From the NCBI GenBank assembly GCA_965204735.1, contig OZ242008.1, positions 32,001 through 96,000 on the forward strand: a stretch of 64,000 nt of DNA. Reading direction: 5' to 3'. Position numbers and translations under genes: made by a program. A model generated the notes under the pieces. The model saw only the letters and a list, made by a program, of their open reading frames with translations, was not told where the DNA came from and did no database searches. This document shows positions 56,842 through 63,327 of this stretch, piece after piece (positions within the stretch are counted from its first letter, which is position 1; each line of letters opens with the position of its first letter). The stretch is from Longimicrobiales bacterium. Lineage in GTDB: Bacteria > Gemmatimonadota > Gemmatimonadetes > Longimicrobiales > Gaopeijiaceae.

Positions 56842-58323
56842 ATGCTGAAGCGACTGAAACTCTCCAACTTCAAGGTCTGGAATGAACTGAGTCTGCCGCT
56901 AGGTCGGGTGACCGGGCTCTTCGGTGGAAACAGTTCCGGCAAGAGCAGCATCCTTCAGTTCCTGTTGATGCTGAAGCAGACGAAGAACGCCTCGGATCGC
57001 AGCGTGGTGTTGCACTTCGGGGATCGGGATCGTGGCGACTTCGTGGAGCTGGGCGGCTTCAGGGACATCGTGCATCGCAACGACAGTTCGCGGACGATTT
57101 CATGGGCGCTTGAGTGGGGACACGACCACGTGACGATCGGGGATCCGCAAGGAAGTCGCAGGGAGACACTGTACGACTTTGATTCCTTGCTGACGGAATG
57201 CGCCGTGCACATGTACGGTGGGGACATACGGCCGTATATGCTGAAGTATGTGTTCGAGTCGGGCAGCTTTTCCGTTATGGCTGACCAAGACTCGCCCAAG
57301 TACGCCCTCGATGGAGGCGACTATTCGTTCCTGCGCAACCAGGGCCGGCCTTGGGGGCTTCCCGGTCCCGTGAAGACTCACTTGTTTCCGGACCAAGCCA
57401 AGACATACTACCAGAACACCGGCTTTCTGAGTGTGTTCGAAACGGAATACGAAAGGCTGATGGATCGCATCCACTACCTCGGACCGCTCCGAGAGGGTCC
57501 ACGGCGCGAGTACTTCTGGTCCGGCACCAGCCCTCACGACACAGGGGTTCGTGGCGAGCGAACGATTGAGGCCATACTGTCTGCGACCAAGAAGGGCGAG
57601 ACCAGGAATCTGGCACGATACAAGCACCGTAAAGAATTTCAGGAGATGATCGGCTACTGGCTTGATCAGCTTGGGCTGGCCACTGAGTTCGGCGTCGCGG
57701 AAATCGCTTCTGAAAGCAATCTCTACCGGGCAGCCGTCAGGAAGGACGAGGCCAGCGCAGAGGCTGTGTTGCCGGATGTTGGCTTCGGCGTCTCTCAGGT
57801 CTTGCCGGCGCTTGTCTTGCTGTACTATGTGCCACGTGGTTCCATTGTGCTGATGGAACAGCCGGAGATCCACCTTCACCCTTCGGCCCAAGGGGGATTG
57901 GCCGACGCAATCCTGTCGGCCGCCAAAGCCCGCGACCTTCAAGTCATTGTGGAGAGCCACAGCGAACACCTCTTACGGCGACTGCAACTTCGTGTTGCGA
58001 CGGAAGAAGCCTCATCCGATGAAGTCAAACTTTATGCTACGAACGTCCTGGACGGTGTGGGCTCTGTTTCGGATTTGGATCTCACTCCGCTCGGCGAAAT
58101 CAGAAATTGGCCGACACACTTCTTCGGGGACGAAATGGGCGAGATTACCGCGATTCGACGGGCCACGCTCGAGCGACGGTTGCAAGTCGGCGAGGGTCAG
58201 GTAATTGTCGATGTCGATCAGGCGAGGGCAGTGCCTGGCCGGCGTGTTCCGGCCGGCGACGACTCCAACAGGCCGAGCTACGGCGTGTCCAAGCTGGCCA
58301 GCGCTGCGACGCCGGCGGCGTAG
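56842..58323 (+). CDS. AAA_15/AAA_21 ATPase with C-terminal DUF3696-like domain
   Basis: GGAGG precedes ATG 56842. LSNFK, Walker A GGNSSGKS, YLGPLR, DVGFGVSQVLP, EQPEIHLHP, ESHSEHLL and WPTHFF. Confidence 0.85.
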   Translation: MLKRLKLSNFKVWNELSLPLGRVTGLFGGNSSGKSSILQFLLMLKQTKNASDRSVVLHFGDRDRGDFVELGGFRDIVHRNDSSRTISWALEWGHDHVTIGDPQGSRRETLYDFDSLLTECAVHMYGGDIRPYMLKYVFESGSFSVMADQDSPKYALDGGDYSFLRNQGRPWGLPGPVKTHLFPDQAKTYYQNTGFLSVFETEYERLMDRIHYLGPLREGPRREYFWSGTSPHDTGVRGERTIEAILSATKKGETRNLARYKHRKEFQEMIGYWLDQLGLATEFGVAEIASESNLYRAAVRKDEASAEAVLPDVGFGVSQVLPALVLLYYVPRGSIVLMEQPEIHLHPSAQGGLADAILSAAKARDLQVIVESHSEHLLRRLQLRVATEEASSDEVKLYATNVLDGVGSVSDLDLTPLGEIRNWPTHFFGDEMGEITAIRRATLERRLQVGEGQVIVDVDQARAVPGRRVPAGDDSNRPSYGVSKLASAATPAA

Positions 58324-59618
58324 CCGATCTGCGGAGGAACCGCTCTGCCGATCATATTCGAGACGTTGGTTCTCGACAGGGGCGCTCCGCTGACCATTCT
58401 GAACTCGAAGGTGTCGGGGAATCCCTGGATGCGGGCTGCTTCATGGGGTGTGATGGTCCTGCGCAACTGGGGATGTATGTACCTTCCACGCCCGGGTGTG
58501 TTGAACCCGGTGGTTATGGTACCGGCTGGCTTGTCCCAGCGAAGTCTTCCATAGATCGACGGATACGTGTGGCCGTCCTTGTGGCAGTCGGGACGCCAAT
58601 CGTTCGGCAAGTCGAACAGGTCGTGGCTGAACAGGTAGTCGATCCTCTCTCGATTGATCGCTGACAGCTCCGCCGGCGCATCCAAGAAACCGCGGGGCTC
58701 GCGCTCCAGGAGGTCGCCGATCACCCAGCGCAAGTCTCGTTCCGGGCGCGCCAGAGCTTGGACGGCCGCTTCCAGCTCCGGCTGTCCATCGACCGAAGCA
58801 ACGAGGATGTGCCGCTTTCGCGTCTGCGGCAATCCGAGACGCCTCGCGTCGATCACCGCCTCGTCGACGTAGTACTCCCGCGACTCGAACAGCGCTCGGG
58901 CCTCGTCGAGTATCCCCCGGCGGTCGTGTCGTATCCCGGGCACGTTCTCGATGATCACCGCCCTTGCGCCCAGCGCCACGGCCAAGGCCGGCATTGCCAC
59001 GTAGTACATGTTGCGCCCGTCCGACCGAAGAGTGACGTTGTTGGACGTCGAGTGTCCTTCGCACGGCGGTCCACCCAGCAAGATGTCCACTCGGCCGGCG
59101 GCAAGACGCATCGGCCCGTCCAACGGCCTGGGGTCTTCCACGAACCTGGCGGTTCCGTTCCGATAGGAATAGCTGGTGGTCACCGAGGTCCAGATGTTGC
59201 GCGACGAGCAGTACTGCGGATCGAAGTTCCTCCGGTACACGTCCAGCGCGACCGCGCTGTTGTCTGCCGCGAAGACGAACTCGGGCGCCATGCCAGCCGC
59301 GAGCACGGCTTCGCGCACGCCGTGCGACAGTCCCCCGGCCCCGCAGAACACGTCGGCAATCTCGACACAGCGTCGCCCGGAAAGCGACTCGTGCTCCACT
59401 TCGCCGCGCAGCAGCGCATGGTCGAACTGGGACTGCAACGACGCGACTTCGGACCCGTCCACGCCAGCGTCGCTGCGACACGACGATTCTCCCGACGCGC
59501 TGGGCACCTCCAGGCTTCTGACGATGCGCGAGTCGTCAAGGCGAAACGTCTCGCAGACGGCCTTGCCTCCCAGCGCCAACGATCCCTGGCGCACCCTTCC
59601 CGCAATTCTACCGGGCAC
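58278..59618 (-). CDS. DNA (cytosine-5) methyltransferase
   Basis: Motif I DVFCGAGG, motif IV GGPPCEGHS, motif VI ENV, motif VIII PQTRKR, motif IX EAARIQGFPD, motif X IGRAVPP. Confidence 0.92.
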   Translation of the reverse strand: MPGRIAGRVRQGSLALGGKAVCETFRLDDSRIVRSLEVPSASGESSCRSDAGVDGSEVASLQSQFDHALLRGEVEHESLSGRRCVEIADVFCGAGGLSHGVREAVLAAGMAPEFVFAADNSAVALDVYRRNFDPQYCSSRNIWTSVTTSYSYRNGTARFVEDPRPLDGPMRLAAGRVDILLGGPPCEGHSTSNNVTLRSDGRNMYYVAMPALAVALGARAVIIENVPGIRHDRRGILDEARALFESREYYVDEAVIDARRLGLPQTRKRHILVASVDGQPELEAAVQALARPERDLRWVIGDLLEREPRGFLDAPAELSAINRERIDYLFSHDLFDLPNDWRPDCHKDGHTYPSIYGRLRWDKPAGTITTGFNTPGRGRYIHPQLRRTITPHEAARIQGFPDTFEFRMVSGAPLSRTNVSNMIGRAVPPQIGYAAGVAALASLDTP

Positions 59619-61343: not shown

Positions 61344-63327
61344 CTCGACGACTCCTCGCTCTCGGGCCGACCGGCGTGCGGATCGTCGTCTGCCGACCAT
61401 GCTTCCGACCGGGCCGCTACGACTACGTCGAGGCTGGCATAATAGTCCGAGTTGAAGGACTCGGACGTCACGTCCACCACTATCTCCCGGTCCTTCCAAA
61501 CCACCAAGTCCACACCATCCGCGTGCGTGTCCACGCCGTCGCTGGCCAAGTCCGCCTCTTCGCCGTCGACGCGGAAGGACGCCAAGGGGATCCGTCCCGA
61601 TCCGTCGCGACGCCTGTTGTCGTCGAGTACGACGGCAGGAACGACCGACACACGTGCGAGCACTCTCTCCGCCGAAGCGTCTTCCTTCAGCTTGATTCCT
61701 ACGCGCGCCGTGGCCACCGACTCTGAACCGACGCTTTGTCGTCCCTCCCTGATCCGAATCTCAAAGGGGTCAGGGAGGACCGGAGGTGGTGGCGGCCGAC
61801 CCAGCTTCTCCGCCGACATCACGCTCGCCAGAATCTGCTCCAAGCGTCTCGATCCTCGCGCTACAGGAGGCTCCGGCTTGGGGTTGAGGTCCTTGAGGAA
61901 CTTCTGAGTGTGTTCTTTGATGCGACGCAGGATGCGCTCCACCAGCTTCTGGAGGAGCTCGCGCTTGGCCTGGTCGTCCGGGTACGCGTCCCGCAGTCTC
62001 TGAGAGTTGGGATTCCAGGTGTCATGCGAAGGCGGTTCCGATAGGTGAAGCGCCTCGTCGGCGTCGGGATCGCCAAGAAAAACGCCAACGCCCTTCTGAT
62101 CGCCGGCGCTTGGTAGTTTCAGGTATTTGACGACCATCAGGGGCCCGCTGCGAATCAGCGCCACCGAATTCTGGAATAGATCATCCGGCGAGTCGTCCGC
62201 TTCGATGGGCTGTTGATCGTCGGCACCTTTGAGGGCGAGTTGACCGGGTTGCAAACCCTGGAACCGGTGGAACTTCAGCTTCTTCTCGCGAGGCCCACTC
62301 AGCGGCACGCTGTGCTCGATCATCGTGTAGCAGGTGATGTGCGCCTCCAGTTCGGCGACGGCCAGGGGGGCCGGAGCGCGAACCAGATCGTTGTCCATGC
62401 ACAACTCGACGGTCAGCTTGTTGGAGAGCAAGCGTGGCCACCACCATTGCTCGACGGCGGTACGGAATTCGCCGATGTCGATCGACGACCCGATGATCAT
62501 GATCGAAGTGCCGTGCTCGTCGCGGGTTCTCGTGAACCCGACCTGTTCGGCGATTTCGTGCGCCATATCGTCGACGATCGGCCTGCACACCGGTTGTCCA
62601 CCCTGTCGGTCCTCATGGACGCCAAAGAGAGCGCGGCCTGTGTACTTGCGAGCCGCGGAGTCCCTGCTCCCTGCCGAGCGCGCCTCGTTCCCCTTCCACC
62701 AATGGCCGTCGAACGTGGCGCAGGCGAAGAGCCGCGCGTGGTGGCCACCTGTCTTCGCGCTGGGCTCGAAAATGGAATACACGACGAACATGTTGCAGTC
62801 CGACGCCTCCTCGTAGACCGCCTTCCCCAAGCCGTACGACCCGCCCTTGCCGGAAGACACGCTTGTCGTGTCCTGCCCCAGCGAAAGGCAAAGCTCCTCG
62901 AAACGATCCTTCTTGTCCCGCTCGTCGTATCCCAATCCGCAAGTGTTGCGATCTTCGACTATGGTCACCTGAACGGGTACGCCGTCGCGCAGTCGAGTCA
63001 GCGCGTTCGGAGACGAAAGACCGAGTTTCTCCAGCCGAGCGAGGGGAGAGTCGATCGCATCGAAGCCAAGAAGCTTGCGGAAGGCCGTCACCTCTTGACG
63101 CGAGAGCGTCATGTTCCGTATCAGGACCTCGGTCTTCGTGTCCGGCAGCGTGGCATCGACACTATTCTGGATCGCCTCCCGCGCGACGCGTGCTGCTGTG
63201 TCGTGACCAGAGCCTTCCAATGCGAAGCGCCGAGCCGTTGACTTGATTCGCTCGTTCGGGTTTTCCTCAACGAACAGCCAAGCTGGCTGGTCGGAGCGTG
63301 ATCGGGGGGGGGGGGGGGGGGCGACAT
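61340..63327 (-). CDS. GHKL (MORC/MutL/Hsp90-like) ATPase; likely ATG is out of frame across a poly-C tract
   Basis: Bergerat motifs REAIQNSVDA (N-box), VEDRNTCGL (G1), GGSYGLGK (G2) and HGTSI (G3). ATG 63327 is followed by TCG and C18. Confidence 0.8.
63304..63321. repeat. G18/C18 homopolymer tract (simple sequence repeat)
   Basis: Read directly from the sequence. It is by far the longest homopolymer in the window. Confidence 0.9.

Follow-up and report, generated by a model that had tools for sequence, protein, structure and literature searches.

Introduction

The GHKL ATPases of the prokaryotic MORC/paraMORC type have been predicted to take part in restriction-modification (R-M) since 2008 (PMC2292703, in the part available), and the available part of a 2026 preprint on Tiamat still calls this role proposed. 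One family of them, paraMORC2, was described by Iyer, Abhiman and Aravind in 2008 from predicted R-M operons with Dcm and Vsr; according to the sections accessible, its mark is an ExxxH motif that lies within the S5 domain's C-terminal part (PMC2292703). A second related set is PDC-M33, a candidate system of PADLOC; the PDC systems are predictions, and the PDC-M33 models derive from Payne et al. (bioRxiv 10.1101/2024.01.29.577857, available in part). In this study, a 64,000-nucleotide window of a Longimicrobiales genome (contig OZ242008.1, positions 32,001 to 96,000) was analyzed, in which four minus-strand genes at 58278..63327 encode a GHKL ATPase (A), a protein of no named family (B), a DUF6339 protein (C) and a C5 cytosine methylase.

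With our judgement evenly poised for and against it, we favor the reading that this cassette is an R-M-like defense system, in which the methylase would mark host DNA as self, the A-B-C trio would form a separable, ATP-driven attack arm, and a run of 18 C behind the start codon of A is probably a phase switch set to OFF. Speaking for it are a location in a defense hotspot, a linkage to Vsr, the survival of methylases beyond their trio, and the placing of the switch in A rather than in the methylase.

Comparison with described systems

The cassette resembles the paraMORC2 operons, as presented in the accessible part of PMC2292703, in its GHKL motifs, its ExxxH motif, its Dcm and Vsr neighbors and its patchy lateral spread; it differs from them in having neither a superfamily II (SFII) helicase nor a restriction endonuclease (REase), and in having the fixed partners B and DUF6339 and a frameshifting C-run. 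In an alignment of 41 sequences numbered after P0006, the GHKL motifs of A (E40/N44/D47, D115/G120, G151-G152..G157-K158 and G262, at positions taken from general knowledge of the GHKL fold) and its ExxxH motif (E420, H424) were invariant, which upholds the GHKL identity given by the initial annotation, although A had neither a Pfam GHKL match nor a match by sequence to a solved structure. From these motifs, A appears to fit the paraMORC2 family. Searches of the plasmid, phage and IMG/VR collections did not turn it up. Other A-like genes occur apart from such cassettes: the genome under study (G000, 98% complete, main contig C1) holds another GHKL gene of the PDC-M33A-like kind at C1:3071381-3071974 (L108), which seems to stand alone, and solitary distant homologues with ExxxH occur in G001 and G051 (L023:9385-11358 and L025:8295-10268).

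PDC-M33 has the identical gene order, with a GHKL-like A of ~630 aa, a middle gene of ~300 aa and a DUF6339-like C. It differs in that the matches of A and C are weak and that of B is lacking, and the cassette adds a linked C5 methylase and Vsr. Protein A matched PDC-M33A with E 3.9e-10 and 37 bits, over model positions 32-157 of 627 and thus in the N-terminal part only; 40 of 45 C members matched the PDC-M33C model PDLC04586 (best E 9.5e-11; E 3.9e-05 for the cassette's own protein); and none of 53 B members matched PDC-M33B, a model that hits only a paralogous locus described below. Because of the weak A and C matches and the missing one for B, the cassette, which would work like a paraMORC-type R-M operon, seems to be a relative, and not a clean member, of PDC-M33. 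The initial statement that the gene set matched no nameable system was too strong, and the locus is not wholly undescribed, A fitting paraMORC2 (PMC2292703, as far as available) and A and C being distant PDC-M33 relatives.

Other systems were compared by the gene sets that define them for Druantia II, DISARM II and Mza. The methylase belongs to a subfamily common to the PADLOC models MTase_II PDLC03368 (2.1e-85) and DruM2 (5.5e-84; 280 bits), and is shared in this way with Druantia type II and type II C5 methylases, whereas no cassette gene gave a DruE, DruF or DruG match in PADLOC. The genes of DISARM II (DrmA-B-C-E) and Mza (Z1-DUF4420-AIPR) were not at the locus in PADLOC and Pfam scans, in agreement with the initial exclusion of DISARM, Druantia and Mza. 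Regarding type II R-M, no cognate REase was found and no REase model matched A, B or C. The literature search, outside which most subscription papers lay, returned no paper naming PDC-M33 or DUF6339.

Organization and genomic setting of the cassette

The junctions read earlier from the sequence were confirmed: A and B overlap by TTGA at 61340-61343, B and C are separated by 17 bp (60364-60380), and C and the methylase overlap by 11 bp (59608-59618). Pfam likewise confirmed the DUF6339 and C5 methyltransferase identities (Table 1).

Table 1. Features of the cassette and its convergent neighbor (pI, isoelectric point; AF2, AlphaFold2; pLDDT, its per-residue confidence score)
Feature	Position in window	Strand	Evidence or remark
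Gene A, GHKL (paraMORC2-like) ATPase, ~660 aa in frame	61340..63327	-	Motif alignment, PADLOC
C18 homopolymer (G18 on +)	63304..63321	-	Six bases past start codon of A (63327); assembled sequence out of frame
Gene B, 320 aa, acidic (pI 5.1)	60381..61343	-	AF2 pLDDT 90.7
Gene C, DUF6339, 251 aa, basic (pI 9.7)	59608..60363	-	Pfam E 2.5e-11
C5 cytosine DNA methyltransferase, 446 aa	58278..59618	-	Pfam E 7.8e-33
HEC-03-type ABC ATPase	56842..58323	+	PADLOC HEC-03B 635 bits; same island, outside cassette

The cassette is flanked by sdhB on the left and a nucleotidyltransferase gene (NTP_transf_3, Pfam) on the right, in the AT-rich block noted at first: its GC content is 0.626 against a mean of 0.693 (standard deviation 0.03) for the 828 five-kb windows of the genome, 3.5% of which are equally low, and at third codon positions GC is 0.70-0.80 in the cassette versus 0.93-0.98 in sdhAB. 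In one relative, G001, a 22.7-kb DISARM island occupies the same interval; in another, G002, there is nothing in it. The cassette copy L002 is flanked by a type II R-M pair and DISARM. The sdhB-nucleotidyltransferase site is a defense hotspot. A scan for promoters and terminators gave matches at chance level only. Three public runs with a low share come from sponge metagenomes; X8, one of the three, holds the whole locus at ~94% identity.

Conservation, the Vsr neighbor and the Z1 sister clade

The neighborhood survey called for by the initial annotation covered the best 80 of 265 JGI metagenome loci and 401 genomes of the class (A at E 1e-40 or better). The close-clade JGI set comprised 32 loci (A with at least 250 bits and at least 4 kb downstream), three pairs of which look duplicated. 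The order A-B-C-methylase was kept in 31 of the 32, and A was found in seven class genomes, five with the cassette and two with a Z1-DUF4420-A-B-C form. These data support a horizontally moving, conserved, methylase-linked GHKL cassette.

Vsr adjoins the cassette in 23 of the 32 loci and an HhH-GPD gene (G:T glycosylase-type) in two, the other seven being contigs of <6 kb; both gene types are expected beside an active writer of 5-methylcytosine (5mC). Clustering of neighbors revealed no other frequent family. The initial remark that no Vsr gene was seen therefore holds at this locus, while elsewhere Vsr is the usual fifth gene. In G000, G003, G051 and G457 no Vsr is adjacent, the single Vsr of G000 being unlinked, and a Vsr neighbor suggested for L002 was rejected as a spurious clustering link, no Vsr being present there.

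The Vsr linkage also suits a reduced paraMORC2 system, in which the trio would be the accessory clamp of a Z1-helicase/DUF4420-nuclease system that has lost its cutting genes. It would now act with Vsr, in the way of MutL, to repair or maintain methylated DNA, or else with a nuclease whose gene lies at another place. The accessible part of PMC2292703 notes the parallel of MutL and Vsr, and a sister clade with Z1-DUF4420-A-B-C does exist (in G022, G041, G209 and G130; those of G041 and G209 also show the methylase and Vsr). Nevertheless, we regard this explanation as quite unlikely. In a tree built by a quick method with a midpoint root, row L128 being disregarded as read out of frame, the Z1 clade branches separately (SH-aLRT 100), and by single-protein queries Z1 occurred in one and DUF4420 in none of the 32 close-clade loci, the Z1/DUF4420 form being confined to the sister clade. 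Moreover, the nuclease-free form is widespread, and comparison of the four genes with those of two relatives gave ratios of nonsynonymous to synonymous substitution (dN/dS) of 0.10-0.24, rough values as the proportion of synonymous differences (pS, 0.59-0.73) is near saturation, which indicate that all four are under purifying selection. The four genomes without an adjacent Vsr, no Z1 gene being found in G000, and an on/off tract that would be of little gain to a repair helper also speak against it.

Two kinds of related loci were seen besides. In archaeal-looking loci (L097-L105), a single C5 methylase is flanked by two A-B-C trios that diverge from each other, and some of these loci also carry a gene of the G:T glycosylase type; at L092:1914-9430 a trio adjoins a McrB/McrC-like pair.

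The methylase and its relation to the trio

The methylase motifs FxGxGG, PPC186, ENV and QxRxR (I, IV, VI, VIII) were invariant in 18 aligned sequences, so that the catalytic motifs are intact; the target-recognition region is conserved, and a family-specific N-terminal extension has L70 invariant and G72 near-invariant. In the word depletion of the genome many palindromes were depleted and none could be assigned as its target. The subfamily occurs in eight of the 401 class genomes, in three of them beside no intact trio (G057, with remnants of A and C; G248; and G249, which is broken), and likewise at the decayed copy L064. Such methylases resemble the methylase of an R-M system that has outlived its partner. 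The one in G248 (L149:9372-15999) stands with Vsr and faces a 1559-aa SspH-like gene.

The main alternative, which we think doubtful, is by analogy with DndD-DndE that A-B-C might scan DNA as an ATP-driven core and bring exchangeable modifying enzymes to it (a C5 methylase here, a PP-loop/SspD-like enzyme in a paralog of the same genome), without itself attacking DNA. The DndDE core recruits phosphorothioate enzymes or cytosine methylases (PMC10853773, in the part available), and in the distant paralog of our genome (L003:7553-12654; C1 ~4.0956-4.1007 Mb, at C1:4.097 Mb) an SspD/PAPS-reductase-like gene (Pfam E 0.011, SspD 1.4e-10) is followed by genes resembling PDC-M33A and B and by one more gene. 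The SspD/PAPS-reductase-like gene has a C20 run of its own and, read from its ATG, is out of frame. A trio without a nuclease would fit such a core, and the N-terminal extension of the methylase could dock on it. The likeness is one of an ATPase core that is paired in some cases with a cytosine methylase and in others with an enzyme of the PP-loop type; DndD-DndE has an ABC ATPase and a ribbon-helix-helix (RHH) partner, the cassette a GHKL ATPase and no RHH partner. However, the catalytic core of the methylase is complete, a target-recognition region is present, and the enzyme is also found where the trio is not intact; trio-only loci exist, and a profile search could not link B and C of the cassette to those of the paralog.

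The C18 run and the reading frame of gene A

The initial annotation started the ATPase gene at 63327, but the ATG there is out of frame with the body of the gene and the C18 run had been missed. This ATG is followed by TCG and 18 C and leads to a product of 68 aa; with a run of 16, 19 or 22 the gene would be in frame. Since most intact homologues begin 5-10 residues before W6, the sequence comparison makes this ATG the likely start, and a downstream TTG would lose the invariant W6. At the equivalent position there are 22 C in G003 (out of frame) and 27 C in L002/G457 (in frame), and the run is absent in G051 and G409; it thus lies directly after the ATG in three of five related cassettes, with differing flanks and lengths of 18, 22 and 27. 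None of the 80 JGI loci had a run of at least nine bases at the start of A. In the genome, G/C runs are bimodal in length, with 27 of at least 12 bases (12-36) and three of 9-11, and many of the 27 lie just past start codons of long open reading frames (ORFs). Because the genome has so many long runs, phase variation is likely, and the C18 run is probably an on/off switch of A that is now OFF, with natural alleles that would be ON (G457), OFF (G000, G003) and tract-free (G051). Contigs from public runs break in the C-run or read 17 G (X2 and X3, which may be the source sample; same strain, likewise out of frame), and that of the related strain X8 reads 14 G; as these runs have no recorded chemistry, length switching stays at likely.

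An assembly error or early decay, rather than a switch, might also account for the frameshift. Long homopolymers are error-prone, contigs break in this one or differ by one base, and decayed copies are known from G057 and L064. We hold this to be very unlikely, given the recurrence of a run after the ATG in the related cassettes and at none of the JGI loci, the 27 similar runs of the genome, and four genes that have no lesion besides the frameshift in the C-run.

There is a precedent in the Pgl/BREX system of Streptomyces, where, according to the part of PMC4365076 available, homopolymer length likewise turns a defense system on and off through phase variation of pglX. The tract there is one of eight G in this methylase gene, as against 18-27 C in the ATPase gene here.

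Further G/C runs of the genome were noted. Paralogous genes at C1:969393 and C1:973310 have identical flanks with C19 (off) and C14 (on), respectively; a C18 run lies within an adenine-methylase-like ORF with a DPAMGSG motif at C1:2687460, and C13 precedes another long ORF at C1:3424558, both being possibly phase-variable defense genes.

Predicted structures of B and C

The initial annotation had suggested that the effector may be a new fold in the 320-aa or the 251-aa protein. Protein B had no Pfam match, but its AF2 model has an N-terminal Ig-like beta-sandwich, and so is not wholly new, followed by a C-terminal alpha/beta-helical part. Residues 30-171 resemble generic sandwiches (best VIA Z 8.7, root-mean-square deviation 3.2 over 99 residues), the C-terminal half having barely been searched. 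With 66 homologous clusters and no invariant column among 53 aligned sequences, B is likely an adaptor, as judged from its model. Protein C is predicted to be all-helical (pLDDT 94.2), and for it the expectation stood insofar as no structural match was found: Foldseek gave none under E 1 (best 1.2), and the best VIA Z was 5.4. In the ESM Atlas, B matched unnamed clusters only and C gave no usable match. None of these searches with predicted models shows a new fold. The invariant residues of C are H85, F100, W101, W103, R116, Y158 and R213, with D168 and S172 near-invariant, and C is a candidate DNA reader or effector. A HEPN-like RxxxxH in C was rejected, its His not being kept in the JGI clade. 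A weak search of longer proteins gave no fusion of C; a C-DUF4268 fusion was seen in a Z1-type locus at L129:3542-5101.

Proposed mechanism

GHL ATPases dimerise on ATP and clamp their substrate (PMC2292703 and the Tiamat preprint, in the parts available, together with general knowledge of the family). In the R-M-like reading that we favor, A would clamp DNA in an ATP-gated manner, B would be an Ig-like adaptor, and the basic C may read or block unmethylated sites. As a nuclease fold is lacking, the attack arm would hold up foreign DNA or sequester it, act through an unrecognized site of C, or rely on a borrowed nuclease, like the sister clade with Z1-DUF4420. A more specific form, which we consider unlikely, is that A-B-C would be a nuclease-free GHKL clamp whose DUF6339 protein reads methylation and shuts down unmarked DNA by clamping alone or by other chemistry. 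It would combine with varied self-marks (5mC and possibly sulfur), and slippage of the poly-C run would serve as bet-hedging in Gemmatimonadota that live with sponges. If true, MORC-type silencing of foreign DNA would have a bacterial model in this cassette. A compact and widespread four-gene cassette without a helicase or known nuclease is in any case a test case for a bacterial MORC-like clamp on methylated versus unmethylated DNA, from which DUF6339 would gain its first function and structure.

Several points weigh against the favored reading. Neither a nuclease motif nor a nuclease fold turned up in the three trio proteins by PADLOC, Pfam and structure searches, the predicted structures being those of B and C; at the locus, PADLOC and Pfam detected neither a recognizable REase-fold nuclease nor an SFII/Z1 helicase, as had first been stated. 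The trio also stands without any writer (L093-L095, L104) or with a PAPS-reductase/SspD-like gene, and a writer-helping or stand-alone role fits these loci equally. The near-saturation of pS leaves the dN/dS values rough. Regarding the switch, the frame remains open from a GTG at 63511, so that A may start upstream, and as the chemistry of the runs is not on record, 17 versus 18 G may be a homopolymer error. Finally, no experiment was found on the cassette or, in the text accessible, on PDC-M33.

Neighboring genes

The initial annotation described the cassette as facing a DUF3696 ATPase. A convergent ABC ATPase is indeed present, with a frame extending ~45 codons beyond the model and a 46-nt overlap with the methylase end, but the label did not stand, DUF3696 matching with E 0.068, under the cut-off, and HEC-03B being the strong match (Table 1). 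The PIN partner of HEC-03 is not at the locus, its model matching the genome solely at C1:1807192, and by neighbor clustering the ATPase is a non-recurrent neighbor of related cassettes. In run X3, a low-depth contig omits 56760-58185. Further to the left, an ABC ATPase-TOPRIM protein at 51404-52954 (-) matches PADLOC HEC-04 with E 3e-38 and adjoins a MutS_V-domain gene (49295-51376).

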